A program made the position numbers and the translations under genes. A DNA stretch of 53,721 nt from an uncultured Prevotella sp. Lineage in GTDB: Bacteria > Bacillota > Clostridia > Christensenellales > UBA1242. The stretch covers positions 1 through 53,721 of the forward strand of contig CAZXAV010000001.1 of assembly GCA_964638195.1 (NCBI GenBank), in the 5' to 3' direction. This document shows positions 27,210 through 44,658 of this stretch, in pieces. The notes beneath the pieces are model-generated. The model was not told where the DNA came from. It saw only the letters and a list, made by a program, of their open reading frames with translations, and searched no databases. Within the stretch, counting starts at the first letter, position 1. Each line of letters begins with the position of its first letter.

Positions 27210-27777
27210 AATTTGGAATTCCTTTTTTGATTAACAAAGTCACCGCCACCGTGGTTACGACGGCTAAACCCATAGATAATACCACATTCCATGCGTTCAA
27301 ATCAAAGACATCGTTACCAGTACCTGCAAAATATGTATATGTTAAAATAAAACCATTATTGATAAAATGGATTAACATGGTCCAACCAATTTGGTGGGTC
27401 TTCATAAAAATCCAAGCCAACCAAATGCCCATCAACAACTGGTAAACGGTTTGCGACCATGAACCGTGGTACAGCATGAAAATGACCGCACTAATCCCAA
27501 TCACACACCAATCGGGCATTTTGGTTAATTTCAATAATTTGCAACAAAATAAACGGAAAATCAATTCTTCAACCATGGGCACCAACACCGCCCCAATGAT
27601 TAAAGCCATCCAGAAACCATCTTGGAATAAATCGGTGTCCGTGGTACGTGCTTCCCAACCCCAACGGATAAAAAGTTCGGCACACAAATTTTGCAACATC
27701 AAATAACCGAACAAGCAAAACACTGCGATGACTACACACACCGCCGCAGTGCGTAAATTACTCTTAACTTTTGGCAT
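27199..27777 (-). CDS. CPBP-family intramembrane glutamic endopeptidase (second paralogue)
   Basis: The motifs are 'VEELIFRLF', 'FMLYHGSW' and 'MLIHFINNGF'. The track ORF extends to 27813, but ATG 27777 (MPKVKSN...) sits 7 nt after a TATACT -10 box and avoids overlapping the divergent MBL gene. The 3' end overlaps the next CPBP gene by 11 nt. Confidence 0.75.
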   Translation of the reverse strand: MPKVKSNLRTAAVCVVIAVFCLFGYLMLQNLCAELFIRWGWEARTTDTDLFQDGFWMALIIGAVLVPMVEELIFRLFCCKLLKLTKMPDWCVIGISAVIFMLYHGSWSQTVYQLLMGIWLAWIFMKTHQIGWTMLIHFINNGFILTYTYFAGTGNDVFDLNAWNVVLSMGLAVVTTVAVTLLIKKGIPNYEK

Positions 27778-27792
27778 CTTTTCTAGTATATT
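27764..27792 (+). promoter_or_regulatory. Promoter TTAACT-17-TATATT for the MBL hydrolase gene (leaderless geometry)
   Basis: TTAACT is at 27764-27769, followed by a 17-nt spacer, TATATT at 27787-27792, and 6 nt (ATTAAA) to ATG 27799. There is no SD. Its -10 box overlaps the opposite-strand -10 box (AGTATATT). Confidence 0.5.
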
Positions 27793-27813
27793 ATTAAAAT
27801 GCTGAAAATCCAA
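27785..27813 (-). promoter_or_regulatory. Promoter TTGGAT-17-TATACT for the CPBP-CPBP-tadA-DUF4097 unit (leaderless geometry)
   Basis: On the minus strand, TTGGAT is at 27813-27808, followed by a 17-nt spacer, TATACT at 27790-27785, and 7 nt to ATG 27777. There is no SD. Confidence 0.45.
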
Positions 27814-28587: not shown

Positions 28588-31500
28588 TTATTTAGTTGTC
28601 ATCTTACGGCGCATACGCATGAAGACCAAGATACCAATCCCCACAACACCCAACACAACCGCTAAAATCACATAGCCAAAGGTGCTTTGTTGTGCGTTGA
28701 CTGTCCAAGTGTCCATATGGACATAATCGCCGTCCGCATCACGAACCATGACGGTATATAAACCCGCATCCGAGACACTGAATAACGCTTGCGAATCAAC
28801 ACCTGCGGTTGCCAAGGTGCTGCTGTCCACAGTGACCGCTTGTTGTTCAACAAAGTCTTTGTACAAATAAATCATAACCGTACCTTGCGCATGGTACAAC
28901 CAATACGGGTTGTAATACAACGTGACCGTCCCCGTGGTGGCAGTTCCACTGCCGCTGCTGAGTACGAAATAACTGCTGGCACTGTTGGCTTTGTGTTGGA
29001 TGTTAAATTCCACCACGTGCGTAATGTAAGTTTGCAAAATCGCATTGTAAGTTTGTAAAGTAATGGTGTAGCTACCGGGGTTTTCGTCGGCACTGAATTT
29101 CATATAATCATTGACTTTCAAATCATCGAAGTCATGAATTTTGTAGCCGTTGCGTTTGACCGATTCCACTTTGATATCAGGATAAATCGGCATGCTGAAT
29201 GATTCACGAATCGTATAAGACGGCACAATTTGGAATTGGTATTCGGATTCCAACAAATCCGAAATATTTGAACCAATGCTGTACGATACTTTGACACGAT
29301 AGTTACCACTCCTGTTCCAATAGAACGAAGTTTGTGAACCATTGACTTGATATTCTTCCATGGTTTCGCCATTGGACCCCGTATAACGCACTTCCATTTT
29401 GGTCACGCAGAATTGTTTGTTAAAAAATTCTTTATCTTCTTTTAATTTGTCCGCATAAAGTTTGGTCAAGAAAGTATTACCATAATCAACCAATTTCATT
29501 TCGACTTGGTCGTTGTAAACCATGCCGTTAACGGGTTGCTTGTCGTTAATCAAAATCATAGGTTTGGTCATTACCGCCAACATGTAACGTTTTTGACGAT
29601 ATAAGATATCACTTTCGTCACTGCTGTTACCGAAGTACAAATAGTTGCCAACCAAATCATGGACAGTAAATTCGTAATACCCCGCATCATAACGGTTAAT
29701 CGTAAAGACATCACCATAATTCAAAGTCTTCACCAATTTTCCGTTGTAATAGCAATCGACCAAAATCAAATTACCTTCAACCAAATAACACGGTGCCCCA
29801 AACGCATCACGCAAAACTGACATGTCGCAGTACAAACTGACTTCCAATTTGTTGTCATGTGCGGTCATGAAACTGTCGCGGATAATGTGATAAGTCGTGG
29901 TATTGGGGACAACTGGGAATGGCGTAAGGCTGGCACTGCCCGATGAAGACGGATTACCATTTAAGCGCAAGGTGATGGCGGTACCGCTGTTCAATTCCCC
30001 ACTGGAAACACCCGTCGTAGCGAAATAAATGGGACTGGTGTAAATCGGTTCACCGTTCTTTTGTCCGCTTAGGAATGCCAAGCGCCAAACTAACGTTTTA
30101 TTCGGTTCATCGTAATAGTAATAATCTGTACCCAATTCCGTGTTCCCCGCCAAGACGCGGTTAGTTTGACCAACCCGAATTTCCAAACCATGGGCTTGAT
30201 AATTGAAAAGCGGATAGAAGATGCCATTACTACTTTCCATGGTGGTGAAAACGTAACGCGGGATATAAGTGTATTCGTTCGTGTTATTGCGATCGGGATA
30301 GAATTTATAATCACTGGTGCTGGCTTGAATTTGTTCGCCATCGTCATAAACCAAAACCATGGTGTTATCAATTTGGACAATTTCAAATTTATAAGTTTTC
30401 TTCGCCCACACTGCATTACGCAACGTTACTTCATAAGCACCGACTTGGTCGAAAGTGAATTTTTTGGTATCGGGTCGCAATGTCACGCGTTCCGTTTGAC
30501 CATCCAAGGTACGCACGTAAGAAACGGTAACTGGGAATGCGGTCGGCACAAGATTTTTGCTGATGTCGAAAATTACGGCACTGACAAAGGTTTGGTCTTC
30601 GACTTCAATCGTTTGGTCACTGGCATTTTTCCATTCCACATTGGGCAAACGGGTGTCAAAGACAAAGGTCTGGTCAAACAGAATTGCCCCACTGGCACGT
30701 CCAGTCGCAACAATGTGATATTGTTGAAGCGTGGTTGAACCTTTTTTCGGAGTAAAGGTATGAGAAATCATGTTGTTGCTGATAAACGATTGCAAATCAC
30801 TTAACAATTCGTCTGTTGCGGCATCATAAATTAAAACTTTGTAAACTGTACTTAAATAGCTGAATTCCACCCCACGTTCATCACCGATGTAAATCACACC
30901 GTTTTGGGTGATGGTGTTACCATAAACATTGAAGTTAATGGTACGTTGTGATTGTTGGTGATATTCGGTCGTACTGACGCGTCCAAAGGGGTCGGTAACG
31001 GTGATGACCAATTCATGGCTGACATCAAAACCTTGGATTGGGGTACCCGCTTTTAATGAGAAATAAGTATCCATGTTCGTACCCGCCGCAGTTCGGTCTT
31101 CAATTTTCATTTTGAAGAGTGCGGATAATTTTTCATCAAACAAGATTAACGGTAAATCGTCATAGTTAATGGCTGTTACCATGATAATGCTGCTAGTTTC
31201 ACTGGCTTGATAACAATCCAGTCGCAGGTTCGCTGCGTTTTCACGGATATTGTAGAATTCAAAAATTTCGGGTGCACCAATCCGGTCGTACAACGTATAC
31301 GAACAACTGACACCTTTTTCGGTCGCAACGTTGATCCAATTATTCAAAGCCTTGATCAAGTTTTCTTCGCTCTTAGGTCCTGTACCCGTGTCATTGCCAA
31401 TGTGCCAACTGGCGGTGCTGCCCAACACGGTGTAATATTCGTCACCACTGACAAATTTGAAAGAATTGTTACGCAAGAAGAATTGGTGCACACTGGAACT

Positions 31501-34500
31501 GGAAGCATGCATTTCAATCCCAGTTTGGATTTTGTCACCTTCGTTACTGGTTGCTCCGATAAAGTTAATGGCATTCACATAATTGCTGCCTTGGATTTGT
31601 ACCAAGTAACTGTTGATGTGCCCCGCATAATCGGTTTCAGTAATGTAATAGTACTTCATTTCATTGTCACGGAGTCCTACCAATGTAGCGAAAGGAATCG
31701 GTTCTTCCCCTTCTGCCCCCGTGTACAGCTTGAATTGCACCGCGGGTTGTGAGCCTTCCCCCGTGCTGTCAACTTCACGGTAAGTGATGGTTTTAACATC
31801 TAAGTAACGGTTGTTGTCTTGGTCACTGGCAAAGACAAATGAATCACTTAAACCATAAACGTAACCGCCCGGCAATTCCGACGCATTCAAGGTACGTGCC
31901 AAGTTATCACCGTCTTTAACTTTAGCTAAGTTATAATTGGGCTTACTAATATCAAATAAAATCGTATAGTTGGTACACGTGTCATCATAGGTCAACAAAC
32001 TAACCGATAAACTGGCACCGTTGGGAATCACCATTCCGTTTAAGAAATCTTCCATCAAATCAAATGTGTATTGGTTATCAACTGGGTTTGGTGTGGCAAA
32101 AGTCGCATCACGGGTAAAGCCGTTGGCTTTCCAACTGGCAACGGTGGCATCAATATCTAAACCTGCGTACATACTGTTTTGGTCGTTTTCAAAGCGGAAT
32201 TTTAATTGGTTAATTTCCGATGGATCAACTATGTAGACATACGCATTGCCATCAAATTCCATGTGTGAATTGGAGATGGTTTTATTGTCTTCAACAATGA
32301 TTTCGGCTTTCGTTCCGTAAGCGGTATCCAAATTCAAAACCAAATAATCATAATTGGCACTGGTGGGCGCACTGGCATCAGTTTTCAATTCCACCAAATT
32401 ACCGTCAATCAACAAACACGAAATGCTGCGTGCGTTATCCGCCACCACCAGTCGGTAAACTGGACCATCGGCACGCGTATCAGCCGCACCAAGCATCCAA
32501 GTTCCGCTGCCCTCGCCCATAGTTTTAATTTGATTGTTGCTGTTGATATAACTGAACCGAGGGGTCAACGATGGGAAGTTAAAATTATGTTCTGTCGCCC
32601 TGGGGTCATTTGAAATGTCAGCAACGAAGTTATAGTTTTCAATCTTGTAATTAGTGGTCTTGTGTTTCCATGAATATTTGTTATTGAAACCCGACACGTA
32701 TGCCACACGGTTACTGCTTAATTCGTTGTTGTTATCATGGAAAACCTTTGCATCCGCCACTTTCACTTTCGGATATTGTTCTTTATTGTAGTAGTCATCC
32801 GATTTTGCGAAAGTCACTTTTAATTCAGTTTGGTATTTGTCTACGTCATAGTGCAACATTTTTTGGTCGTCAACGATAAAATAATAATCACGAGCAATTG
32901 TATCCAAACCACCGTCCTTTGGTGCAGTGGTATAACGACGGCTTATAATATACATCCCCGAGGGCGTTATGGTGTTAACATTAAACAATGCCAAACGAAT
33001 CGTACCACCTTGCGCATCCAAAATGTCATGGTATTGATAAATGAGACCCGAATTACTTTGGTTCGGGAAAATCGGTTCATTATTTTCTGTTAGAGGGTTA
33101 TTGACGGGTTTTTCCGCAAAGGGATAATTTTTAGAATTGAGGTCATACGTAAACGGATAATATTGTAAATAAACACAATCAACGCGGAAATCATCCTTTA
33201 TCGGTCTTTGTAAGAAAGAAAATGTCACATAGGGACGGTTGGTCATTCCACCCGTACTGGTCACCAAACTGGTGTACACCGTGGGTGATGTTTCGGCAAC
33301 CATACCACGGTCAAGATACTTATCTTCGGTTGAAATGCTCAGATAACTTGATTCCGCATACACCATGCCAAGGCAGTTATCATGCGTTAAAATGATATAA
33401 TATTCACCGACATTACCTAAATCATCTGTTACGCGGAAATAGTATGTCCCCTCTTCTTTCAACACAACATAGCCATTGTCAACATCGACTTGCGAGAAGT
33501 CACTTTCTGGATCTGCCACATCACGGTAAGTTTCACCACCCACGCTGTATTCGATTTTGGACAACCCGACACCAATGGCGGGCTGTTCATTGCCTTTATT
33601 ATTGATACCACGTTTGTCGGGCACTAAAACACCGACATCGGGGTTCATTAAATTTTCAAAGATGTCAACAAAGCCAGTGCCGCCGAACATGGCTTTGTTC
33701 TGACTTTGGTTGGCAATCAATTTCTTAGTACCGAAACCTAACTTAACCCCTTCATTTGCATCAAAAATCACAGCATTTGTGTCAACAAGTTCGGATTCTA
33801 CACTTTGGACGAAAGTCGGTGTACTGCCGTCAATAATCAACACGAAATAGGTTTCATTACCAACATCGTCAATCAAAGTAAAACGATACAAACCAGATGC
33901 TGCAAAAGTTTCTTTCAAAGTCCATCCATCTTCGGTCTTGATTGGTTGATAGCCGTCATCGGGTTTGGAAACAGTTTTGGAAAATGCATAAGCCGCATAC
34001 AAATTGGTCGATGGTGTTTTGAAATATTGGTAGTTACGGTCAGCATTCGGGTCAGTTCCCGCTTTTTCCAATTCCATTTCGTAAAATTCACACAAGACGT
34101 TGTTAAAGTTAATCCCACTATCCTTTTGTTTCCATGTCAAACTAACTTCGCCCGCCCCGACAATGGCTACATTTTCGGGCAAATTATCTAACGAGTCGGC
34201 GGTGGTATGAGCTTTGATTCCCGTAGCAGAAGTATCATCGACAACAATGTTAAACACCGAAGTTGATTTGCTGTGTGCACCATATTTAATCGTCAAACGG
34301 TACTGCCCCGGTCTTAAAACAAATTCAAACGCACCACCATTACCCACAGGGAAGTTCATATCCGTATAGGTGTAATTGCTAAATTCGGCATACGCCAAAG
34401 TGATGGTCGGTGGGACTTCAAATTGTCCCAACGTCCTCTGACCATCGTAATTCAATTTCACCGTTTGCCCGCTTAATGTTTGGTTCAAAACCAAATCACC

Positions 34501-36528
34501 TACGTTGTAAGTTTTTGTGCTGCCATTCGCGGTCACATCAAAAGCAATTTTTACGGCATTCACAATTTCAAAGAAGAACGTTTGTTGGCACATTTCTCCG
34601 TTGACTTTGAAATAGACCGTCAACAAATATTGACCAGCGGCTTCAAACGGTGCACCGACTTCCATGGTCGAACTGACCCATTCCGCAGTGTTACCCGTAC
34701 CGCTTGACGCCTTGTATGCCACACTGGACAACACAACTGCCGCTTCCCCATTCATACCTGCCCCCGTCGCATGTCCAACATTGCTGTACAATTTGACTGG
34801 TGGGAAGTTGGTACGCACGGGTTGTAAGTTTTTAGTGGTGACATAGTTTGCCAATTCGGTCGCATACGTCAAAGCATCACTGACGCGCATATTGTTGTAG
34901 TCGGTGACCGAACCGCTTTCCTTGGCGGTCATCTTTGCTTCACGCACCCAAGCGGAAATATCACTACTGATGTTGGCATTTTCACTGTCATAAAATGGCA
35001 ACGGTCCGTTGTATTTACTGTCGGAGTGTTGTCCACCGTAGTAGGCTTGGAAACCAAGAATATTTAAGATACTGGAATATTGGGTGTAGTGTTTCAAAGT
35101 GACGTACCCTTTTGCGGCACCGGGAGTTTTGATACCTTGGTTGGTTTCAAGGTCAAAAAGATACCAACTGTAATATCGCAAGGTTGAAATCACATGGTAT
35201 TCGCCGATGTTGTAAAACTGCAATTCACGCCGGCTGAAATCGTCTGGATTGTTTTGAGAATATTTAGCCGTGGTCTGCACTTGGACATCAAAAAAGTACG
35301 ACATATAAGTCAACGTTGGATATTCGCTTTCGTAAGAATAGTTGTAAATTTCACTATTCCCCGCCACGCGGTATTTGGTATCAAAACGTGGGAAATTCAT
35401 ATAATTGGCTTTATTCACAATGACAAACGAGAAGCTGATATCCAGTTGCGTGAACACACCATCCCCGCTGGTAATCTTTTGTTTGAACATGATTTGGTAA
35501 AAACCTTGTTCTTGGAACATAGCACGTAACGCATTACCGTTATACGCCACCGCACCGATGTCAAAAGTCGTTAACGCACTGTTGGTATAATTGATTTCAC
35601 CCAACAGAACTTGTTCGTTTTCGGGTGTATCATTACGGGCATCATAAACTTTGATGGAATTGCCACTGCGCACGACACGGTACAGAATTTTAGCATTGCT
35701 GTTACAAAGTCGTATCGTGCTATCTGTCGATAAAGTAATATTTGGTGCAACCTTCAAACTTATCGACCCTGTCGATGTGTCCATGATGTTTAAGTCAGTA
35801 CCATCCGCATTTTCAATTACCGCAGTATAGCCGTTAACATTTTGGGCATTAGGGGTCAGTGTTAGATTGAAGATTTCGTTACCATCGGCATCGTCAATCA
35901 CGGTTTCAACGGTCTCACCACCAACCGACAAATTATTGGGTACACCGCAGTAAACTTGATCGGCAGGATATTTGGAATCGACCTCATAAATCAAATTTGC
36001 CAAGGTTTGACCATCACGCGTAATTGTCAAATCTTTGGGGATATCCGACAAGTTGGTCAATTCAAACAAAACTATGTCATCGTAGTTATAGGGGTCAAGC
36101 ATAATGACGGGAACTTCCAAATTATTCCCTAAGCCATTCACAATCGAACGCATTTCGGTATTGGTATAAATCGGATAAGGATAACCCGCTTTACGTTTGG
36201 TTTGGAACTCCGGGAACGACCGAGTGTTCGCGGGCATGGCATTCAAGAACTCGGTTAAAACCCCGCGGTCATAACGTTCTTCCAATAATGTTAATGTGGT
36301 ACTCTGCCCCAAAGTGATTGTTCCAGTATCGGCTGAATCGTACCCCATTCGTTCGTACAAATCGTCAAAAGTTGGAATGTAATTGGGGTCACGCATAAAG
36401 GCTTCGTTGTTGACTGCGTTTGAATTGAAATTACGATAGTTAAACAAGCAAGTTGAGCCAAACAAAGACAGAACCATTGTTACGCTTAAAATGGTCAGCG
36501 CAATAATTCTGCCACGGCTATACTTCAT
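28588..36528 (-). CDS. Giant (2,646 aa) surface protein with an N-terminal signal or anchor, many Ig-like domains, and a C-terminal TM helix plus basic tail
   Basis: ATG 36528 is preceded by GGGGGA SD. The N-terminus is 'MKYSRGRIIALTILSVTMVLSLFGS'. A strand motif G-x-Y-x-h-T-V-x-D-x-x-G-N recurs, for example 'GTYYFRVTDDLGNVGEYY' (33388-33453), 'GLYRFTLIDDVGNETYF' (33841-33900), 'GYYEFTVHDLVGNYLYF' (29641-29685) and 'GLYTVMVRDADGDYVHM' (28721-28770). This is reminiscent of HYR/DUF5011-type Ig folds. The C-terminus is 'FGYVILAVVLGVVGIGILVFMRMRRKMTTK'. Confidence 0.85.
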   Translation of the reverse strand: MKYSRGRIIALTILSVTMVLSLFGSTCLFNYRNFNSNAVNNEAFMRDPNYIPTFDDLYERMGYDSADTGTITLGQSTTLTLLEERYDRGVLTEFLNAMPANTRSFPEFQTKRKAGYPYPIYTNTEMRSIVNGLGNNLEVPVIMLDPYNYDDIVLFELTNLSDIPKDLTITRDGQTLANLIYEVDSKYPADQVYCGVPNNLSVGGETVETVIDDADGNEIFNLTLTPNAQNVNGYTAVIENADGTDLNIMDTSTGSISLKVAPNITLSTDSTIRLCNSNAKILYRVVRSGNSIKVYDARNDTPENEQVLLGEINYTNSALTTFDIGAVAYNGNALRAMFQEQGFYQIMFKQKITSGDGVFTQLDISFSFVIVNKANYMNFPRFDTKYRVAGNSEIYNYSYESEYPTLTYMSYFFDVQVQTTAKYSQNNPDDFSRRELQFYNIGEYHVISTLRYYSWYLFDLETNQGIKTPGAAKGYVTLKHYTQYSSILNILGFQAYYGGQHSDSKYNGPLPFYDSENANISSDISAWVREAKMTAKESGSVTDYNNMRVSDALTYATELANYVTTKNLQPVRTNFPPVKLYSNVGHATGAGMNGEAAVVLSSVAYKASSGTGNTAEWVSSTMEVGAPFEAAGQYLLTVYFKVNGEMCQQTFFFEIVNAVKIAFDVTANGSTKTYNVGDLVLNQTLSGQTVKLNYDGQRTLGQFEVPPTITLAYAEFSNYTYTDMNFPVGNGGAFEFVLRPGQYRLTIKYGAHSKSTSVFNIVVDDTSATGIKAHTTADSLDNLPENVAIVGAGEVSLTWKQKDSGINFNNVLCEFYEMELEKAGTDPNADRNYQYFKTPSTNLYAAYAFSKTVSKPDDGYQPIKTEDGWTLKETFAASGLYRFTLIDDVGNETYFVLIIDGSTPTFVQSVESELVDTNAVIFDANEGVKLGFGTKKLIANQSQNKAMFGGTGFVDIFENLMNPDVGVLVPDKRGINNKGNEQPAIGVGLSKIEYSVGGETYRDVADPESDFSQVDVDNGYVVLKEEGTYYFRVTDDLGNVGEYYIILTHDNCLGMVYAESSYLSISTEDKYLDRGMVAETSPTVYTSLVTSTGGMTNRPYVTFSFLQRPIKDDFRVDCVYLQYYPFTYDLNSKNYPFAEKPVNNPLTENNEPIFPNQSNSGLIYQYHDILDAQGGTIRLALFNVNTITPSGMYIISRRYTTAPKDGGLDTIARDYYFIVDDQKMLHYDVDKYQTELKVTFAKSDDYYNKEQYPKVKVADAKVFHDNNNELSSNRVAYVSGFNNKYSWKHKTTNYKIENYNFVADISNDPRATEHNFNFPSLTPRFSYINSNNQIKTMGEGSGTWMLGAADTRADGPVYRLVVADNARSISCLLIDGNLVELKTDASAPTSANYDYLVLNLDTAYGTKAEIIVEDNKTISNSHMEFDGNAYVYIVDPSEINQLKFRFENDQNSMYAGLDIDATVASWKANGFTRDATFATPNPVDNQYTFDLMEDFLNGMVIPNGASLSVSLLTYDDTCTNYTILFDISKPNYNLAKVKDGDNLARTLNASELPGGYVYGLSDSFVFASDQDNNRYLDVKTITYREVDSTGEGSQPAVQFKLYTGAEGEEPIPFATLVGLRDNEMKYYYITETDYAGHINSYLVQIQGSNYVNAINFIGATSNEGDKIQTGIEMHASSSSVHQFFLRNNSFKFVSGDEYYTVLGSTASWHIGNDTGTGPKSEENLIKALNNWINVATEKGVSCSYTLYDRIGAPEIFEFYNIRENAANLRLDCYQASETSSIIMVTAINYDDLPLILFDEKLSALFKMKIEDRTAAGTNMDTYFSLKAGTPIQGFDVSHELVITVTDPFGRVSTTEYHQQSQRTINFNVYGNTITQNGVIYIGDERGVEFSYLSTVYKVLIYDAATDELLSDLQSFISNNMISHTFTPKKGSTTLQQYHIVATGRASGAILFDQTFVFDTRLPNVEWKNASDQTIEVEDQTFVSAVIFDISKNLVPTAFPVTVSYVRTLDGQTERVTLRPDTKKFTFDQVGAYEVTLRNAVWAKKTYKFEIVQIDNTMVLVYDDGEQIQASTSDYKFYPDRNNTNEYTYIPRYVFTTMESSNGIFYPLFNYQAHGLEIRVGQTNRVLAGNTELGTDYYYYDEPNKTLVWRLAFLSGQKNGEPIYTSPIYFATTGVSSGELNSGTAITLRLNGNPSSSGSASLTPFPVVPNTTTYHIIRDSFMTAHDNKLEVSLYCDMSVLRDAFGAPCYLVEGNLILVDCYYNGKLVKTLNYGDVFTINRYDAGYYEFTVHDLVGNYLYFGNSSDESDILYRQKRYMLAVMTKPMILINDKQPVNGMVYNDQVEMKLVDYGNTFLTKLYADKLKEDKEFFNKQFCVTKMEVRYTGSNGETMEEYQVNGSQTSFYWNRSGNYRVKVSYSIGSNISDLLESEYQFQIVPSYTIRESFSMPIYPDIKVESVKRNGYKIHDFDDLKVNDYMKFSADENPGSYTITLQTYNAILQTYITHVVEFNIQHKANSASSYFVLSSGSGTATTGTVTLYYNPYWLYHAQGTVMIYLYKDFVEQQAVTVDSSTLATAGVDSQALFSVSDAGLYTVMVRDADGDYVHMDTWTVNAQQSTFGYVILAVVLGVVGIGILVFMRMRRKMTTK

Positions 36529-36556
36529 TCGTAGTCCCCCAACATAGTATGGTTAA

Positions 36557-36585
36557 ATTATAATTTTAATATTTGATATCGTCAA
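36557..36585 (-). promoter_or_regulatory. Near-consensus sigma-A promoter of the 2,646-aa gene (TTGACG-17-TATAAT)
   Basis: On the minus strand, TTGACG is at 36585-36580, followed by the 17-nt spacer ATATCAAATATTAAAAT and TATAAT at 36562-36557. It lies in the 72-nt gap after the T4CP stop (36601). GGGGGA SD is 6 nt before ATG 36528. Confidence 0.7.
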
Positions 36586-36600
36586 TCAATTCACCACGAC

Positions 36601-38595
36601 TTACCATTCAAATAAATCGTGACGTTCAGCAGTATTGACACGGCGAATGATAATATCATTACGACGGTGGATGTCATAATAGATGGCTGCTTCATCAAAA
36701 TACTTACCCGGGATATAGATGTCTGGCGTCGGCAACAATTTAATCGCACCCTTATTGATACATTCGTAGAACAAGGTGACCTTACTGCGCAACGGGTGAA
36801 AGGTAAAGCAATACACGAAGATATTACCCGGCACAATATCCAACAATTCATTGGGTGGCAACAACGGACGACTGGCGGTATTGGTTGCGGTTGATTTACT
36901 GCCCCCTTCGGAGTCTTCCTTGGCGGCTTTACCCGTGTTACGGCTGACGGTCGTGCTTTCCGTGGTGATTTCCATGTCCCCCATCAAGTCAGAGAACATC
37001 TTACGTGTATCCGTGTCGTTAACACCGACGAAAACTTGGTGGTTACAGTTGTTACGCACCGTTACGGCGGTCTCTGCCCCGTACGTGGTTTCCAACTGTT
37101 TGTAATCTTGCAAAACCAAGGTAAAGAAAATGCGGCGCGAACGGGAAACCGTAATCACGGTCGCGAAATCGTTAATCTTCGGCATGTTACCAAATTCATC
37201 CAACACGAAGTACGTCGGCCACGGTAATTTTCCGCCGCGTTCGTTCGCACTGGCAACCAAGGATTTATACAATTGCGAAATGCACAATGTTGCCAACGGA
37301 TGACGGACTTTAATTTGGTCAGGAATAATCAAGAAGAACGCGGTTGGCTTTTGTGCAAAGTCTTCAAATTTGATGTCAGTTCCACTGGTGATGTAGCAAA
37401 TACCTTTATCGTTGAACATGGACAATTTTTGGGTTGCAATCCCAAAGAAGTTACGCATGGTGTTTTCAGCATTCGCCGTAACGGTTTGGGCTAACGAAGC
37501 CGCCACCGACAATTTGTCACGACCTTCAAAATAGTTCTTAATCGTTTTGAACATGGCTTGTGGGTCGTTATCGCGAATCGACAGAATTTTGAAGATATTA
37601 TAGAAGTTAAATTTTTCACGGGTCATACCCAAATTCGGGTTCAAGCTGTCTTCCAACATTGCCATCGCAGTACCTTGAATTAAGTCACGTGCGCCCTGTT
37701 CCCAACTGGGGTCCTTTTCATTTTCAATCGGACAAATTGCCGAGCAGATGTCTTTAATGTCGGCTTCGGAATCCGAAATCAACTGTTGGCGTAAAGTACG
37801 CATTTCATTTTCCGCCATATCTTTGTTCGGGAAAGCAATCCCGTTGAAAGCGTACCAAACGGGCGGATACGAACTGGCAATCACACGGAGACCCATTTTA
37901 GCTGGGTCAGCATTTTCATAACGTTTAATTTCGCGTTCCAAATGTTGTGCCCGTTGGAACATATCCCATGGTCGTTCAAACGGATTCCAACGAGAACTGC
38001 GGATGGGGTCATTCAGGTTGAAGACTTGAACGTCATAACCTTGACGACGCAAACTTTCTGCCAAGGTATTGTAGATTTCCCCTTTCGGGTCGGTAATCAC
38101 CAAATTCGGTTTTTGGTTGGAAAAGCCCAACGTATATAAGAATGGGAACACATACCCTTGCGTTTTGGCGGCACCAGTTGTACCCAGAATAATCGAGTGG
38201 TAATCTTTCGGCACCATGTTAATGTGAATGTCACCCCCAATCAATTCAAAGCGTGCCAACGGTCCAGTCTTCTTCAAGGCAGCCAATTGTGAGCCTTTGG
38301 TGTAAATGTAAGTCTTATCACGTTCGACATCCGTCATCCAACGGTTGGAGTAATATTGGGAAACACCTTTCTTTTTTTTCTTTCCGTCAGTCTCCAAATA
38401 CTTGAACAAACCAAAGACCAACAGTCCCAAGGGAATCAACATCATCCCGTACTTAAAAAGATCATCGTTCAAACCAAGCGGACTGAATGTCGAACGTTGT
38501 GCCAACATATTTGATGCCGCCAACAAACACACCGCCAACACAACTAACCCACCAATAATGATGAATGCCCATTTCCCCAATTTTTGCATATTCAT
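36601..38595 (-). CDS. VirD4/TraG-family type IV coupling protein (T4CP)-like ATPase
   Basis: The ORF is 664 aa with two N-terminal TM helices ('WAFIIIGGLVVLAVCLLAA', 'MMLIPLGLLVFGLFKYL'). It has Walker A 'ILGTTGAAKTQG' (38161-38200), the signatures 'VITDPKGEIY' and 'RWNPF', and Walker B 'YFVLDEFGNMP' (37181-37215), followed by 'RSRRIFFTLVLQDYKQL'. This is the characteristic T4SS-DNA_transf/TraG-D layout. Confidence 0.8.
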   Translation of the reverse strand: MNMQKLGKWAFIIIGGLVVLAVCLLAASNMLAQRSTFSPLGLNDDLFKYGMMLIPLGLLVFGLFKYLETDGKKKKKGVSQYYSNRWMTDVERDKTYIYTKGSQLAALKKTGPLARFELIGGDIHINMVPKDYHSIILGTTGAAKTQGYVFPFLYTLGFSNQKPNLVITDPKGEIYNTLAESLRRQGYDVQVFNLNDPIRSSRWNPFERPWDMFQRAQHLEREIKRYENADPAKMGLRVIASSYPPVWYAFNGIAFPNKDMAENEMRTLRQQLISDSEADIKDICSAICPIENEKDPSWEQGARDLIQGTAMAMLEDSLNPNLGMTREKFNFYNIFKILSIRDNDPQAMFKTIKNYFEGRDKLSVAASLAQTVTANAENTMRNFFGIATQKLSMFNDKGICYITSGTDIKFEDFAQKPTAFFLIIPDQIKVRHPLATLCISQLYKSLVASANERGGKLPWPTYFVLDEFGNMPKINDFATVITVSRSRRIFFTLVLQDYKQLETTYGAETAVTVRNNCNHQVFVGVNDTDTRKMFSDLMGDMEITTESTTVSRNTGKAAKEDSEGGSKSTATNTASRPLLPPNELLDIVPGNIFVYCFTFHPLRSKVTLFYECINKGAIKLLPTPDIYIPGKYFDEAAIYYDIHRRNDIIIRRVNTAERHDLFEW

Positions 38596-38622: not shown

Positions 38623-39426
38623 TTAATTAGGCAACTTGATTTTTTGTAAATCGGTCAGTAACGCTTGCAACAAAGTCACTTTCAAAGAACGACGTGCGTC
38701 ACCTTGCGTTTGAGTGCCAAACATCTGCCATTGCCCCGCGTGCGCCAAGGTGTCACTGAAAAACACAAATTCGGCGAACCGCAGTCCCAACCGTTGTGCC
38801 GCCGCCGCAAAGCCCGCACATTCCATCTCTACCACAACTGCCCCTTGTGCACGACGTTTCGCCGAGCGGGCTGTCGTTTCACGGAACAACGCATCGGTCG
38901 TCCAAGTGATACCCCGCACCACATTCATGCCGCCGCTTTGTAAAAACTTTTCCACCCAAGCGGTCAACTGCGGATTGGTTTCGACATAGACCGATGGTGC
39001 TAAGTAATGGTAACTGGCACCTTCGTCGCGAATGGCTTTCTCGATGAGCACACACGCATCATCGGCAATCTTTGCATCCAACAACCCCGCTGTGCCATAA
39101 GCAATGACGTTTTCAATGCCTAAGTATTTCAATTCTTCGATGACCGCCGTTGCAACAGGGCTGCCCACCGTCATTAAAACAATCAAACATTGGTCACGGT
39201 ATTGGTAAATGGGAATCTTGCCCGAACGACCGTAAACGTAATACAACAAACGACAATCTTTCAACACTGGCTCTAAAAAGGCACGGTCAATGTTTTCGCA
39301 TAAAAACGTACAAATGGCAGTCTTAATCGGCACGTCCAATTTGACTTGCTTTTCCGCGTGCATCGCACGGGGCGTAATGATTGGTTCGTCGTCAAAGAAC
39401 TCGGTAATCGGTGGCAACTGCTCCAT
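38623..39426 (-). CDS. Nucleoside phosphorylase (PNP/UDP-1 superfamily)
   Basis: The ORF is 267 aa. The central 'GTAGLL' and 'VVVEMECAGFAAAA' motifs are typical of the PNP_UDP_1 fold. The start ATG shares one base with the upstream Ppx stop (TAATG at 39424-39428). It is visibly more GC-rich than its neighbours. Confidence 0.65.
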   Translation of the reverse strand: MEQLPPITEFFDDEPIITPRAMHAEKQVKLDVPIKTAICTFLCENIDRAFLEPVLKDCRLLYYVYGRSGKIPIYQYRDQCLIVLMTVGSPVATAVIEELKYLGIENVIAYGTAGLLDAKIADDACVLIEKAIRDEGASYHYLAPSVYVETNPQLTAWVEKFLQSGGMNVVRGITWTTDALFRETTARSAKRRAQGAVVVEMECAGFAAAAQRLGLRFAEFVFFSDTLAHAGQWQMFGTQTQGDARRSLKVTLLQALLTDLQKIKLPN

Positions 39427-40925
39427 TACAAAATTTCCACGTTCTTTTTATAAATTTTGGTAAACTCTTTGCCTAATTTTTGTAATTGGTAAATTTCGGT
39501 CTTAGCGGCATCAACATCAACCTTCATTTTCTTCATGTCGGTTTCGGTAATCAATTTAATAATGACACTGTCACCCAACACATCACATGAAATGTCTTTC
39601 ACCACTTTTTGGTTACGTAAATTGATGGTGTATGCCATTGCTTCGATAATTGCCAACTTACGCACGGCTGCCAAATCTTCTTCGTTCATTAGGTCTTTAT
39701 ATTTGACCCATTCTGATAACATGAAGTCGTCCCAGTTGCGGCAACTGGCAACAAAGGCTGCCATGACGATTTCTTTGTGGCTTAAACCGTACAAGTTCGC
39801 GTTCAAAATTGCGTAGTAGGTAATCTTGTCAAAATTTTGTTTGTTGATGTTTGCGCCCAAATTAAACAGCAAGGTTGCGACTTTCAAAATGCGGGTAAAC
39901 GCACGGGGCAATTTGTGTAAGACTTTTAATTGCATGTACAACGTGCTGGCTAAGAAGTATTGGTATTTCGCACTGTCTAAATCCAAGTTGTTCGCCCAGA
40001 TAATGGTCTCCACACTGTTCAAGCAAACATCGTTGACGGGCTTGTCATCTTCTTGCATCGTCAAATGATGAGCAATCCCCACGTTACGTCCGTGGCGGTT
40101 AATAATGATTTTAGTTAAGTTGGTATAGTCCATGACCGCCAAAGCAATTGACATCCCGTTCATTAAGTAACCGATACCATTCGCCGTAATGCCTTTTAAT
40201 TTAGCACCACGTTCCACGTCCAAGCCTTGCAAGAACGTCAAGATTTCCGCGAAGTGCGTTTTGTCACTGTTATAATTGTGATCCACATCAAACGGATATT
40301 TATTTTTCTTACGGGACAAACGCGCAAAGCCCGTAAAAATTTCGCTGGAACCAATCACAGGGATTTCGGGGTCAATTTGTTGGAACGGCTCACCCGCCGC
40401 TTTCAACAAGTTGTTAAAGTCTTCCACCGAAGTAAAGTTCGCCGCGCCCATCGGAATGGTCGCACTGTTCAAAATCACACGGCGGCAATAATAGACCAAA
40501 CGCGTACTAGAAGTAGAAACCGCAACAATCAAACCTTTCGCAATGTCAATCGTATTAACCACGGCGGTATATAAGGTATTGATTTCTTCTTCTTCGCTTA
40601 ACAATTTGAATTCCAAGTCCAAATCCGAATTGATTTCTTCCAAGAACGAAATGTAGTTCTTGGCGGCGGTCAAGTTGGCAGATGCCACACAGTGATATTT
40701 AGACACACCATTGGCAATTGCTAACTGTTTATACATTTGTAAGATGTTGATACATTCTTTAATTTTAACAGTTTTAATCAATTCGCTGTTGGCTTGTAAA
40801 TGTTGTTCAATCCCAACGTTTTCCGTGTATTCTTTTTCAACTTCAAAATACTTACTTTCTTCAATGCGCACAATCGACAATTTAATTTGATTAGTGCCTA
40901 ACTCCATAATTGCAACTTTTGTCAT
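39426..40925 (-). CDS. Ppx/GppA-family phosphatase (exopolyphosphatase-like)
   Basis: The ORF is 499 aa. The N-terminal 'VAIMELGTNQIKLSIV' resembles the Ppx-GppA 'iDiGSNS.rL.i' phosphate-1 motif. Also present are 'CVASANLTAAKN' and 'EEEEINTLYTAV', with an HD-like helical C-terminal half. The match is divergent. Confidence 0.55.
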   Translation of the reverse strand: MTKVAIMELGTNQIKLSIVRIEESKYFEVEKEYTENVGIEQHLQANSELIKTVKIKECINILQMYKQLAIANGVSKYHCVASANLTAAKNYISFLEEINSDLDLEFKLLSEEEEINTLYTAVVNTIDIAKGLIVAVSTSSTRLVYYCRRVILNSATIPMGAANFTSVEDFNNLLKAAGEPFQQIDPEIPVIGSSEIFTGFARLSRKKNKYPFDVDHNYNSDKTHFAEILTFLQGLDVERGAKLKGITANGIGYLMNGMSIALAVMDYTNLTKIIINRHGRNVGIAHHLTMQEDDKPVNDVCLNSVETIIWANNLDLDSAKYQYFLASTLYMQLKVLHKLPRAFTRILKVATLLFNLGANINKQNFDKITYYAILNANLYGLSHKEIVMAAFVASCRNWDDFMLSEWVKYKDLMNEEDLAAVRKLAIIEAMAYTINLRNQKVVKDISCDVLGDSVIIKLITETDMKKMKVDVDAAKTEIYQLQKLGKEFTKIYKKNVEIL

Positions 40926-41028: not shown

Positions 41029-43716
41029 ATGGAGAAAATGATAATGAAGAAGTTCTGTAAATTGATGGCACTGGTCTTGGTAATGACCTTACTTTTGTTC
41101 ACCCCCAGCACGGCTGTGGCGGTTAGTAGTTTGGCAAAAATCGCACCCGCCGATACATCCGATCGATTTGCTGCTCCATCACAAAGCGCTGCACCCTTTG
41201 ATTTCGTTGCTGTCGATACATATGATTTAGCCAATTGGACAAAACCGAGCGGTACTTATCTCATCTCCCAACAACTGACCGCCGAGAACAATAACAAATT
41301 CTACGAAGAACACAAAGAAAACACCTTAAAAGACCTTTCGGGTCACACGCCCTATGTCATTGCTTCCACAACCAGTATGCCCGCAAGCGGTGGCTACACC
41401 ACCAATGCCATCACCTTGGCTGCTAACGGCTGCTATAAAATTTCGGTGGAATATTGCGTCGTCAAACAAAAAGATTCCGCTGTAAAAGTTGGTGCTTTTG
41501 GTACTTTCTATTTGAACGACGAAGCCATCACCCTACCAGAAAACAATCACGTTTGGAGTACAGCGGTCTTTTACGTCCGTACCGACCAATTGGAAACGGC
41601 AACCGTCACTCCCGAATTATATTTCGGTTCACGTCAAGAAAATGCCTTAGGCTCAATTTATTTTGACAAGTTCACCGTCAATGCCGTCAAACAAAGCACC
41701 TTTGACCAAGACGTTGACGATCCTAACCGTGACCGCAGTAAAACTTATTACCTTAACTTCACCAACAACAGTGCCCATATCTTGGAAGCAGGTGATTTCG
41801 CCAACGAAAAATTTACTGGTATCACTACCGCGAACGCAGACTACAGTAACAGTATTTCTACCGCTGAACTGCCGACCAATTTAGGTTTTCAAAGCGAACA
41901 ACCCTACTTTTACGCCAAAGACAGCGTCACGAGCAACGTAATGTTATTAAAAGCCAACAAATCTGATGTCACGGTAACTTTACAAGATTACACTTTCAAA
42001 CCACGTCCCAACGAAGCGTACATGTTCCAATTCTACTCCATCGCCACAGCAACGGATGATTTTAGCGGTTTTTATTTCAAAATCGGTGACGATGCCCAAC
42101 AAATTACCAAAGTCAATAATTATCCTTACCATAATGGTTGGCAATTAAATACCGTCTTCTTTGTGGCAGGACGCGACTTGAAACAAGAATACACTTTAAG
42201 TTTTAGTTTAGGCAATGGCGGAACAACCACAGGTTGGGCATGTATCGACGATTTCCAAATCTATAAAGTCAACGGCAGTTATGCCACCAACAACCGCGCC
42301 GCTGTTGGCGTTCATAATACGATTGACAAAAATGACACCGACACGGTCTTAGATATTCCCAATGGTTATTTTGAATTAGGTACCGCCGCCGACAATGTCA
42401 ACAAAGACAGCAGTTACCCTTACCCGTTGGTTGCCAACGATTGGACCACCAACACCACCACGAACGGTATTGTCAATTTGCATGCTTCATTGTGGCACGA
42501 CCGTTTCGGTGACAACCCCGGTTCAATTAACAACAACAGTTATTTCGATAATAATCATGTCTACATGATGCACAATGCTGAACGCACCATCAACGTGCTG
42601 ACCAGCCCCGCACTCACGACCACCAATGACGCCACCACTTACGTCTCATTTGATGCTTATAGCAATCTGGCAACAGAAACCCGTGCTTACATTTTATCGG
42701 CGGAAACCGATGATGACGGTAACATGTCCAACGAAATTATCTTAGGCAACTACATCGACATTAACGACAATGGTTGGCATCATTACGAATTTAACATTGT
42801 CGAAGGCGCCTACGCCAACACGCGTAACTATTACTTACGTTTCGTCATGAAAGGCATTGGTTACGCCTACATTGATAATGTCCGCACCACGACCGATGGG
42901 GCTTTCCAAAATGCTTCCGCAGCACAAACCACTTCGGCAGACGTTGACTTAACCAATCCGTTGGCAATTGAAGACCTTTGGCAACCCACCGACGGAATCA
43001 AAGAAAATGCTTGGATTCATAAAACTAACGATGGCTTGAAAATCGAAAACGTCAACAAGCAAAAGACTGTCGTTCAAAATGCTTTCGCCTACAATTTGAC
43101 TGCCGACGATTATTACGAAGTTGTCATCAGCGCGTACGGCAAAAATGCGTATCTTGGTTTCAGCAGTTATGACGGCTTGTTAGAAGTCACCACCGACAAG
43201 TTAGACCCCGAAATGTTATCTGATTACAAATTGTACATCCACCCCAGTGAGGGTGCGACCGCGGTCAATTTCCAAGTGACTGTGGGTTACGTTGGTGACG
43301 ACACCGACACTGCCCCCATTGCCGACGGTAACATTTTTATCAGCAGTATTGAAATTAACAGCATCGACGAAGACGACTTCAATAACGCCAAAGAGAACGC
43401 CACCAGTGACTCACGTTTGAAAGTTTTATCACTGGCGGAAGAAAACGACGACGACAATGATATTGTCTACAACGAACCCGACAACAACTTCTTTGGTGAA
43501 AACTGGTGGTATTTAATTCCCACCTTGATTACAGCAATTGCTTTGCTTTTGGCGATTGCAACTTTCTTGTTCCGTAAGATTAAATTTGAAAAACACATTA
43601 CCAAGAAAACGACTTCTTACGCCCGTGATATGCGCATGAAAAATCAACACAATAAAATTGTTGCCCAAAAGGCCGCAAAAGTAGATAATGTAACAGATGA
43701 GCCGCAAAGTAAGTAA
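41029..43716 (+). CDS. Secreted, C-terminally membrane-anchored protein with four jelly-roll/CBM-like modules (about 890 aa)
   Basis: The signal peptide is 'MKKFCKLMALVLVMTLLLFTPSTAVA'. The likely start is ATG 41044, 9 nt after GGAG. Four modules each end in a CBM-like terminal strand ('IYFDKFTVNAV', 'CIDDFQIYKV', 'AYIDNVRTT', 'IFISSIEINSI'). An acidic linker 'EENDDDNDIVYNEPDNN' is followed by the TM segment 'WWYLIPTLITAIALLLAIATFLF' and a roughly 50-aa basic cytoplasmic tail. Confidence 0.75.
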   Translation: MEKMIMKKFCKLMALVLVMTLLLFTPSTAVAVSSLAKIAPADTSDRFAAPSQSAAPFDFVAVDTYDLANWTKPSGTYLISQQLTAENNNKFYEEHKENTLKDLSGHTPYVIASTTSMPASGGYTTNAITLAANGCYKISVEYCVVKQKDSAVKVGAFGTFYLNDEAITLPENNHVWSTAVFYVRTDQLETATVTPELYFGSRQENALGSIYFDKFTVNAVKQSTFDQDVDDPNRDRSKTYYLNFTNNSAHILEAGDFANEKFTGITTANADYSNSISTAELPTNLGFQSEQPYFYAKDSVTSNVMLLKANKSDVTVTLQDYTFKPRPNEAYMFQFYSIATATDDFSGFYFKIGDDAQQITKVNNYPYHNGWQLNTVFFVAGRDLKQEYTLSFSLGNGGTTTGWACIDDFQIYKVNGSYATNNRAAVGVHNTIDKNDTDTVLDIPNGYFELGTAADNVNKDSSYPYPLVANDWTTNTTTNGIVNLHASLWHDRFGDNPGSINNNSYFDNNHVYMMHNAERTINVLTSPALTTTNDATTYVSFDAYSNLATETRAYILSAETDDDGNMSNEIILGNYIDINDNGWHHYEFNIVEGAYANTRNYYLRFVMKGIGYAYIDNVRTTTDGAFQNASAAQTTSADVDLTNPLAIEDLWQPTDGIKENAWIHKTNDGLKIENVNKQKTVVQNAFAYNLTADDYYEVVISAYGKNAYLGFSSYDGLLEVTTDKLDPEMLSDYKLYIHPSEGATAVNFQVTVGYVGDDTDTAPIADGNIFISSIEINSIDEDDFNNAKENATSDSRLKVLSLAEENDDDNDIVYNEPDNNFFGENWWYLIPTLITAIALLLAIATFLFRKIKFEKHITKKTTSYARDMRMKNQHNKIVAQKAAKVDNVTDEPQSK

Positions 43717-44239
43717 GTTAATTATTGTCTTGGTTGTGGTTGCCATCATCGCCGGTGTGGGTGTTGGCTTGTATTTCCATTACAACCAAGGACCAATTAT
43801 CGGTCGCATTCAATTTGGTCAAAAATATTATTTAACGGAAATTCGTGACACCGAACGATTTGCAGGTGCGACAATCAGCCGTGACAGTTACTTTCAAATT
43901 AACCCAGACAAACAAACTGGCAAACTTTGCTTGGTTGGTTTAACCGCCACCACAACCACGAATCATGATGGAACTACCACTACTGCTGCCATTCCCTTTA
44001 TCGTCACCAACTATAAAGAAGGGGTGAAAAACACCGTCATTGATTTTGAATACATTATTGACAACGGTGAAAAGACCCAAATTCAACACTTACAAGCCAT
44101 CAGCAATAATTCCGAAATTCGCATTAAAGCGGTTGAACCACACAACGTGCAAGTCATTCAACAAAACCCCGACAAAAACTTAACTGAACTCAATTACGCG
44201 GTCACCATTTTGGTGTTCGCAGCAAAGGAGGCGGAATGA
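43697..44239 (+). CDS. Single-pass membrane protein, hypothetical (180 aa)
   Basis: The N-terminus 'MSRKVSKLIIVLVVVAIIAGVGVGLYF' is a signal anchor. The gene overlaps the upstream gene by 20 nt and the downstream gene by 4 nt (ATGA), which looks like an operon. Confidence 0.55.
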   Translation: MSRKVSKLIIVLVVVAIIAGVGVGLYFHYNQGPIIGRIQFGQKYYLTEIRDTERFAGATISRDSYFQINPDKQTGKLCLVGLTATTTTNHDGTTTTAAIPFIVTNYKEGVKNTVIDFEYIIDNGEKTQIQHLQAISNNSEIRIKAVEPHNVQVIQQNPDKNLTELNYAVTILVFAAKEAE

Positions 44240-44658
44240 TGAGACGTCGTGGTGTCAAGATTGCCATTATTTGTGCCATCATTGCCGTGTTGCTGATTGG
44301 CGGTGGTCTAATCATTTATTTTAGTTTCTTTAATAAAACCGTTTACCACGTGACTGGTGTTGACAAGACCGACTACACCGTTGCCGACTTTAAGGCAAAC
44401 TCCGAATTAGAATTTTACAAAAACGGCACTTTCCGTATCCGCATTGAACACAAAGATAAAGGCTTATCCTTAACGGGAATTGGGACTTATACTCTGGATG
44501 GCAAAACTTACCAATTGACCTTTATTCAAGCATTCGGACGTGACACCAATGACCAAGTAGTCAATATCATCGACCAATGCGACAAGATTACTTGCACCCG
44601 TTCGGGTAATCGTATCAAGTTCACTGACCACAAAACACAAACCTTTTATTTTGGGTAA
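44236..44658 (+). CDS. Single-pass membrane protein, hypothetical (140 aa)
   Basis: A strong SD (AAGGAGG) lies upstream. The N-terminus 'MMRRRGVKIAIICAIIAVLLIGGGLIIYF' is a signal anchor, and the ectodomain is beta-rich. Confidence 0.6.
   Translation: MMRRRGVKIAIICAIIAVLLIGGGLIIYFSFFNKTVYHVTGVDKTDYTVADFKANSELEFYKNGTFRIRIEHKDKGLSLTGIGTYTLDGKTYQLTFIQAFGRDTNDQVVNIIDQCDKITCTRSGNRIKFTDHKTQTFYFG

Follow-up and report, generated by a model that had tools for sequence, protein, structure and literature searches.

The window analysed here is a whole stretch of 53,721 nucleotides, contig CAZXAV010000001.1 of assembly GCA_964638195.1, from an uncultured bacterium of the Christensenellales (Clostridia). 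It carries a gene for a VirD4/TraG-type type IV coupling protein (T4CP) and, directly downstream on the same strand, a gene for a giant surface protein of 2,646 amino acids (aa). T4CPs normally feed DNA into bacterial mating machines. The original prediction had described this one as an apparently orphan coupling ATPase, and had proposed that it was co-opted for the giant, works with a distant type IV secretion system (T4SS), or is the remnant of a decayed integrative and conjugative element (ICE). The T4CP was found to be a vertically inherited core-chromosome gene under strong purifying selection. Its place beside the giant appears to be inherited from an ancestral T4SS operon. The features of the pair are as follows.

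36601..38595, minus strand: gene for the T4CP, a VirD4/TraG-type coupling protein (ATG start, 664 aa; Pfam and NCBIfam profiles)
38404..38568, minus strand: N-terminal membrane domain of the T4CP with two predicted transmembrane (TM) helices, aa 10-28 and 46-64 (Kyte-Doolittle)
38161..38184, minus strand: Walker A motif of the T4CP, GTTGAAKT, aa 138-145, non-canonical (read from the translation)
37180..37206, minus strand: Walker B motif of the T4CP, VLDEFGNMP, aa 464-472, with D466/E467 invariant
36838..37218, minus strand: TraG-D_C domain, aa 460-586 of the nucleotide-binding domain of the T4CP (PF12696)
36557..36585, minus strand: sigma-70-type promoter of the giant, TTGACG-17-TATAAT (best match of the region, 11 of 12 positions)
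28588..36528, minus strand: gene for the giant surface protein, 2,646 aa, with more than 20 beta-sandwich domains (hydropathy, AlphaFold models, Foldseek)
36451..36507, minus strand: N-terminal hydrophobic segment of the giant, aa 8-26, a signal peptide or anchor (hydropathy 2.04)
28591..28674, minus strand: C-terminal TM helix of the giant, aa 2619-2637, and nine-residue tail RMRRKMTTK (hydropathy 2.85, modelled as a helix)

The coupling protein and the giant surface protein

Profile searches identify the 664-aa product as a genuine type IV coupling protein. It was matched by PF02534 (T4SS-DNA_transf; E=1.9e-49, 169 bits against a curated cut-off of 20.1), and by PF12696 (TraG-D_C; E=8.9e-31, 107 bits) and PF10412 (TrwB_AAD_bind; E=2.1e-24, 87 bits), both well over their curated cut-offs. 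It also scores 283 bits, with a cut-off of 250, against the NCBIfam model conju_CD1115 ("VirD4-like conjugal transfer protein, CD1115 family"). The sole PDB match by sequence was TrwB (1e9r/1gl6), spanning aa 433-557. In Kyte-Doolittle windows of 19 residues the two TM helices score 2.75 and 1.88. The helices, the motifs DPKGE (aa 169-173) and RWNPF (aa 202-206), and the Walker B were all found as the original prediction had quoted them. Compared with 4,360 plasmid T4CPs, the protein is only 25-29% identical to the nearest.

The family to which this T4CP belongs is highly constrained. D466 and E467 of the Walker B are invariant in an alignment of 13 family sequences and kept in all 82 T4CPs aligned. 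Downstream, R485-S486-R487 and Q496 are likewise invariant in the family and locus alignments. Within the all-alpha domain, a long run of residues shows unusually little change in the family alignment, and many columns are invariant even at 39% identity.

The Walker A is the exception. The canonical form is GxxxxGK[ST]. In the window T4CP it reads GTTGAAKT, with alanine in place of the glycine that precedes the lysine, and with the lysine and threonine kept. The motifs had been called intact, which holds for the Walker B, the lysine and threonine, and the other motifs but not for this glycine. The change is fixed in the lineage of the window. GTTGAAKT was found in the window and 11 close orthologues, and GTTGANKT in three others. 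A further relative, L015, has GSGKG, in which the Mg-binding threonine is gone. The remaining T4CPs of the same locus alignment all retain GK[ST]. More widely, the Walker A is non-canonical in 22 of 70 proteins of the clade with at least 56% identity, versus none of 44 in the sister group at 39-46% identity (Fisher p=5e-6, with no phylogenetic correction). The variants in this clade are GAAKT, GANKT, GSNKT, GSSKT, and G[SA]GKG. The lysine is invariant across the T4CPs aligned. Nucleotide binding is thus probably kept. The change in the P-loop points to a lower or different turnover of ATP. The pattern is read here as a possible relaxation or change of the constraint on ATP hydrolysis in the lineage where the T4CP is apart from VirB4.

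The giant had no match in Pfam (E<=5), in NCBIfam, or in a PDB sequence search. Its structure could be modelled. AlphaFold models made with 18 homologues have a mean pLDDT of 79.4 for aa 330-1499 and 79.8 for aa 1500-2646. They consist almost wholly of beta-strands, with a long helix at the end that corresponds to the TM segment. In Foldseek searches of the PDB, the models matched only tandem immunoglobulin (Ig)/FN3 arrays, for example those of thick-filament proteins, alpha-2-macroglobulins, contactins, S-layer EA1, and invasin. From the typical size of an Ig domain, a chain of more than 20 such domains could reach about 80-100 nm. The N-terminal hydrophobic segment is retained in close orthologues. 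At the C-terminus there is no LPXTG motif. In its place are the TM helix and the basic tail, and the protein is predicted to be anchored by this helix with RMRRKMTTK in the cytoplasm. The tail motif, R-x-R-x-x-M-x-x-[KR]-COOH, is conserved at fixed length throughout the giant family. Members of the family are 2,488-2,847 aa long. From about aa 350 onwards they align collinearly up to their C-termini, also where identity is only 15-30%. In L017, a relative with 76% identity, the giant (12073-19294) is split into overlapping open reading frames (ORFs) of 845 and 1,607 aa, which points to a frameshift or pseudogene, or else to an error in the assembly.

The giant adjoins the T4CP, as had been noted, with a spacer of 72 bp (36529-36600, minus strand). 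After the -10 element, the spacer holds the leader CATACTATGTTGGGGGA, a GGGGGA Shine-Dalgarno sequence, and the start codon. No terminator-like site was found in it. The -35, the -10, the leader, the Shine-Dalgarno sequence, and the start codon are near-invariant in 15 species, while the adjoining coding DNA is saturated at synonymous sites. Because these elements are conserved despite that saturation, the giant appears to have its own promoter. The T4CP and the giant therefore need not be one transcript.

Conservation and contents of the locus

A scan with one genome per species gave 17 loci with T4CPs that are 61-94% identical to that of the window. The named relatives are metagenome-assembled genomes (MAGs) of Christensenellaceae or Christensenellales, uncultured Clostridia of the gut and rumen. 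The gene order of the window is kept in 15 of these loci. It runs from the UvrA paralogue through DUF4363, YetF, the flippase, the DUF4179-like protein, hyp180, and hyp895, then divergently through Ppx, (PNP), the T4CP, and the giant, and then to MBL and CAAX. The T4CP is full length in all complete orthologues. Against the relatives L001 and L003, at dS above 1, its dN/dS is 0.043 and 0.026, respectively. The values for Ppx are 0.029 and 0.031, and those for the MBL hydrolase are 0.039 and 0.033. The giant is less constrained, with a dN/dS of 0.15 in this comparison. The GC content of the T4CP gene is the same as that of its flanks. The T4CP is thus a core-chromosome gene that is inherited vertically under strong purifying selection.

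No partner of the T4CP lies nearby. A Pfam search of all ORFs of at least 100 aa in the window gave no gene for VirB4, a relaxase, an integrase, replication, or partition. When the VirB4, VirB6-like, 565-674-aa, and pilin-like proteins of relatives were compared with the window by tblastn, nothing was found at E<=0.01. The genes that neighbour VirB4 in two other Clostridia loci, L112 and L113, also had no matches in the window. These searches bear out the earlier statement that such genes are absent from the 53 kb. The word "orphan" holds for the 53.7-kb contig only and not for the genome. Basal relatives keep VirB4, VirB6-like, and pilin-like genes beside the pair, and VirB4 is dispersed elsewhere.

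An ICE or conjugative plasmid would be expected to combine a relaxase, a T4CP, VirB4, and an integrase or replication gene in one element, and of these the window has the T4CP alone. Such an element would also be expected to be patchy, horizontally acquired, and atypical in composition. The T4CP instead has the same position in 15 species, a tree consistent with vertical descent, and ordinary GC content. The idea that the gene is the remnant of a decayed ICE on its way to loss draws on the lack of other T4SS genes in the window and on the degenerate Walker A, and it can hardly be maintained. The dN/dS of the T4CP, 0.03-0.04 at saturated dS, equals that of Ppx and MBL, and simple decay is excluded for that reason. 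The orthologues are full length, columns remain invariant down to 39% identity, and 15 of the 17 loci are syntenic. On these grounds the ICE remnant was rejected.

The rest of the window has the character of an ordinary Clostridia chromosome. Upstream of the T4CP on the same strand, as had been reported, are the genes for PNP (38623-39426) and Ppx (39426-40925). Other genes encode RecD2, TadA, two CAAX proteases, an MBL hydrolase, a polysaccharide flippase, YetF, a UvrA paralogue, a sigma factor, a SpoU methylase, and a mini-RNase III. The window also codes for several membrane-anchored proteins without a family match. At 25741-27813 on the minus strand, the gene tadA overlaps by 55 bp the 3' end of the first of the two tandem CAAX-protease (Rce1-like) genes, and these two genes overlap one another.

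Some of the anchored proteins deserve mention. An operon-like trio of genes for proteins of 895, 180, and 140 aa (41029-44658, plus strand) is divergent from Ppx and is kept in the loci of close orthologues. The 895-aa protein has a signal peptide, a C-terminal TM helix, and a charged tail, and the 180-aa and 140-aa (DUF4179-like) proteins are N-terminally anchored. No member of the trio matches a family. A second giant ORF of 6,838 aa is present at 3569-24085 on the minus strand. It has an N-terminal TM segment, no C-terminal anchor, and no Pfam match. It was considered as a paralogue of the 2,646-aa giant and set aside, as there was no BLAST similarity and no Pfam match. Directly upstream of it is a gene (24172-25731, minus strand) for an N-terminally anchored protein of 519 aa that is rich in short G/N/V repeats.

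Ancestry of the pair and probable dispersal of its partners

The family alignment (A1) was used to fetch 80 metagenome loci, and all of their ORFs were clustered. Homologues of the giant accompany the T4CP in 24 of these loci, down to 40% T4CP identity and with differing flanks. The original prediction had suggested that this adjacency be looked for in relatives, and it was kept in all 24. Giant-family genes were never found beside 46 control loci with conjugative-type T4CPs (31% identity or less). The pair is retained at 61-63% T4CP identity amid other neighbours in L015, L018, and L023, and at 40% identity next to LeuRS and DnaA in L021. In L018 and L015 there is one small gene between the T4CP and the giant. 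The upstream contexts of the pair vary and include Ppx/PNP, ScpAB, LeuRS, and a T4SS cluster. Downstream, the synteny of the giant with MBL lasts to 63% T4CP identity.

Two loci depart from this arrangement. In L023 the giant is convergent with the T4CP and two genes away from it. In L019 the T4CP (45% identical) has no giant within 10 kb. L019 also has a divergent T4SS_pilin-like gene (9301-9645). Its RecO-PPDK neighbourhood resembles that of a stand-alone VirB4 in L113, which hints that the ancestral cluster was located near RecO-PPDK before it broke up.

It can be asked whether the adjacency is only historical. The giant would then be a general adhesin or envelope fibre, and the T4CP would work with a distant T4SS or in some other ATP-dependent process. 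The conserved promoter of the giant would suit this, as would L023, L019, and the persistence of giant-MBL synteny, which indicates that rearrangement is slow here. However, the upstream context changed several times and VirB4 left while the pair stayed, and the giant family is missing beside the conjugative-type controls. This explanation is regarded as quite unlikely.

The phylogeny of the T4CPs places the pair among related systems. A neighbour-joining tree of 82 T4CPs unites the giant-linked proteins in a single clade. The sister of this clade consists of chromosomal clusters with the T4CP, a 338-620-aa protein, a protein with 6-7 TM helices ("c4", VirB6-like), and VirB4. Genes for LytTR response regulators or histidine kinases and for a STAS protein often border these sister clusters (L035, L038, L040, and L043-L046), which suggests signal-controlled expression of a non-conjugative T4SS. 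The next sister outward has a MobL relaxase, the T4CP, a 1,425-1,632-aa surface protein, c4, and VirB4. MobL was seen only in these more distant loci (L050, L053, L055, L056, and L100), and this outer group consists of true conjugative elements. The comparison with element-borne T4CPs that had been called for sets the giant clade apart, with the MobL elements further out and plasmid T4CPs below 30% identity.

The basal loci of the giant clade show what once adjoined the pair. In L027, L028, and L034, genes for VirB4, c4, a 565-674-aa protein, and one or two 2-TM proteins lie divergently upstream of the T4CP and the giant. The giant homologues of these three loci are thus adjacent to VirB4 and the VirB6-like gene. 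The VirB4 is about 875 aa long and has P-loop_TraG, DUF87, and AAA_10 matches. The 565-674-aa protein has a single TM helix, and the 114-aa 2-TM protein of L027 has a weak T4SS_pilin match. No relaxase was found within 10 kb in the three clusters. L027 also has a Rho-like gene beyond the giant.

The gene that follows the T4CP has a common plan in all related lineages. Its product starts with a signal peptide. It closes with an Ig-like domain that carries GxYxVxVxDxAGN, followed by a TM helix and 9-10 residues of basic tail. It differs in size, with 338-620 aa in the chromosomal T4SS clusters, 1,425-1,632 aa in the MobL elements, and about 2,500-2,850 aa here. The C-terminal 65 positions of the giant-family hidden Markov model match the short 338-620-aa versions at E values of 1e-4 to 3e-7. 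Because these proteins share their ends and the C-terminus of the model matches, the giant can be seen as an expanded version of a standard component in its ancestral position. The adjacency of the T4CP and the giant therefore appears to be ancient and inherited from the ancestral operon, not a new invention.

The neighbouring MobL elements raise the question of a split conjugative or chromosome-mobilising system, in which a relaxase, oriT, and channel genes would be on other contigs. The T4CP does pass the NCBIfam conjugal-transfer model, and the next-but-one sister group has a MobL relaxase directly upstream of its T4CP. On the other side, no relaxase is next to any of the 24 giant-linked T4CPs, the basal three among them. 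The gene has a fixed place among core genes across species with no integrase, and its inheritance is vertical. A split conjugative system is accordingly improbable.

VirB4 was followed in other Clostridia. A profile (A2) made from three VirB4 proteins recovered more than 120 clusters of 870-900 aa, 52-70% identical, from Clostridia, Eubacteriales, and Christensenellales MAGs. Seven lineages were looked up. In every one, VirB4 has core genes as its neighbours, and no T4CP was present within 6-10 kb. The contexts are as follows.

L102-L111 and L114/L115: FtsA-FtsZ-iPGM-VirB4-GreA
L112: c4-VirB4-1,123 aa-FBA
L113: RecO-PPDK...VirB4
L116: L10/L12...VirB4-FBA...SecE-NusG
L117: RNase R-VirB4...SmpB
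L118: VirB4-HD-Mur ligase-SpoVG

L102-L111 and L114/L115 are from abundant human-gut Eubacteriales MAGs, and VirB4 stands alone there between the iPGM gene and greA. In L102-L111 (VirB4 at 10001-12682), ftsA-ftsZ is just upstream of the iPGM gene. In L114/L115 (VirB4 at 8001-10685), phage genes that include a P22-like portal are found where ftsA-ftsZ lies in L102-L111.

It appears that T4SS genes are dispersed and vertically inherited in this broad group of Clostridia. Absence of VirB4 from a 54-kb contig therefore says little. The explanation that is favoured, at slightly better than even, is that the pair is one surviving module of a monoderm-type T4SS that is fixed in the chromosome, inherited vertically, and devoid of a relaxase, and the other genes of which are elsewhere. 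Two features expected of a domesticated T4SS were found here, namely vertical inheritance under purifying selection and no relaxase with the T4SS genes. VirB4, the VirB6-like protein with 6-7 TM helices, and the small pilin-like proteins adjoined the pair ancestrally and would now be encoded elsewhere in this genome. The giant would be exported by Sec, and its C-terminal helix with the basic tail would keep this chain of more than 20 Ig-like domains attached to the membrane. The fibre could extend past the cell wall and make contact with a partner cell or a surface. A T4CP hexamer at the membrane beside the anchor of the giant would take or gate a substrate, possibly protein or DNA, for the channel. 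Of the explanations first offered, work with a distant T4SS is thus the best supported, in the form of a domesticated, dispersed, relaxase-less system, and a distant set of partners is plausible for this genome.

Several observations weigh against a domesticated T4SS. No substrate, relaxase, or effector was identified. From accession ranges and whole-genome shotgun prefixes, compared for three clusters and seven VirB4 contigs, no VirB4, VirB6-like, or pilin-like gene was placed in one genome with any T4CP of at least 60% identity. The giant has its own conserved promoter and may not be co-expressed with the T4CP, and it is displaced in L023 and lacking in L019. The P-loop glycine or threonine was lost repeatedly in this clade, and the T4CP may no longer be a T4SS motor.

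The P-loop also bears on the proposal of co-option, in which an exapted T4CP would serve the giant only. It might then have little catalytic activity and would act in the membrane as a scaffold or receptor, docking on the basic cytoplasmic tail of the giant to assemble, position, tension, or signal through the fibre without a VirB4/VirB6 channel. The pair is together in all 24 giant loci even though VirB4 and the VirB6-like gene were separated from it. The Walker A departs from GK[ST] through at least five substitutions in the 22 proteins noted above, in a protein whose dN/dS as a whole is 0.03-0.04. The tail motif keeps its length in an otherwise fast-evolving giant, and the all-alpha region is unusually invariant. 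The unlinked t4cp of Patescibacteria proved non-essential, and the authors considered exaptation of the T4CP (PMC12102498). However, L018 and L023 have no adjacent VirB4 and yet keep the canonical GSGKT. The invariant Walker B, Walker A lysine, and RSR/Q motifs suggest that nucleotide binding was retained. The Sec-type N-terminus of the giant needs no T4CP for export, and the positive-inside rule is by itself enough to predict a basic tail behind a TM helix. Co-option is therefore a minority reading and considered unlikely. The unbroken linkage and the P-loop erosion speak for it, but the adjacency itself was inherited from the ancestral operon. If a largely non-catalytic T4CP and the fibre did form a two-gene system, which is equally doubtful, this would be a new kind of conjugation-derived surface apparatus.

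Comparison with known systems

T4SSs that lack a relaxase and are passed on vertically have been described chiefly in host-associated Proteobacteria. Patescibacteria were added recently, and there the system is essential for the epibiotic lifestyle. In the literature searched, no paper was found that describes the present system in Clostridia. The locus points to a comparable domesticated T4SS in a large clade of gut and rumen Clostridia that are abundant but for the most part uncultured, with MAGs labelled Christensenellaceae among them. Two things are unusual about it. One is the invariant pairing of the T4CP with a length-conserved fibre of about 2,500-2,850 residues, and the other is the repeated erosion of the P-loop while the rest of the T4CP is strongly constrained. 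If the system is used for contact with bacteria, methanogens, or host surfaces, it would offer a concrete and testable handle on cell-cell interactions in these taxa. In addition, a lone T4CP on a MAG contig should not be called an ICE scar or a standalone system before its dispersed partners have been sought.

The T4CP resembles the conjugative T4CPs of monoderms (CD1115; TrwB/VirD4/TraG) in its two TM helices, its nucleotide-binding domain with an all-alpha insert, and its Walker B. It differs from them in being core-chromosomal and vertically inherited, in having no relaxase, VirB4, or integrase nearby, and in the loss of the Walker A glycine. The gene order of the T4CP followed by a surface protein is shared with the MobL elements.

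The giant can be compared with the surface adhesins that are well-established components of Gram-positive conjugation systems, of which PrgB of pCF10 is one. The thioester-domain adhesin of pLS20 is another (PMC8092201). Like these, the giant family provides a large secreted surface protein with an Ig-like stalk in a T4SS gene set, and a role in contact is thought likely for such proteins. Unlike them, the giant has a TM helix and basic tail and not an LPXTG/sortase anchor, and no adhesin or thioester domain was recognised in it. It is also about 2,600 aa long with a length conserved throughout the clade, chromosomal, and vertically inherited.

Dispersal of T4SS genes has a parallel in the rvh T4SS of Rickettsiales, which is described as conserved and vertically inherited with genes scattered over several chromosomal islands (PMC2653234), and which is cited as dispersed in the work on Patescibacteria (PMC12102498). 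The rvh system differs in that it is P-type and belongs to diderms that live as obligate intracellular bacteria. Its components are duplicated, and it is not known to have a giant-fibre partner.

A published precedent comes from the Patescibacteria. Chromosomal T4SSs of the MPF-FATA type without a relaxase are widespread there, and only 148 of 5,713 T4CP genes are near virB4 (PMC12102498). No PrgB-type adhesins were detected in that group (PMC12102498). Both systems have a monoderm conjugation origin, are chromosomal and mostly without a relaxase, and usually have the T4CP far from virB4. The Clostridia belong to another phylum with no evidence of epibiont life, and their T4CP is tightly linked with a giant Ig-like fibre.

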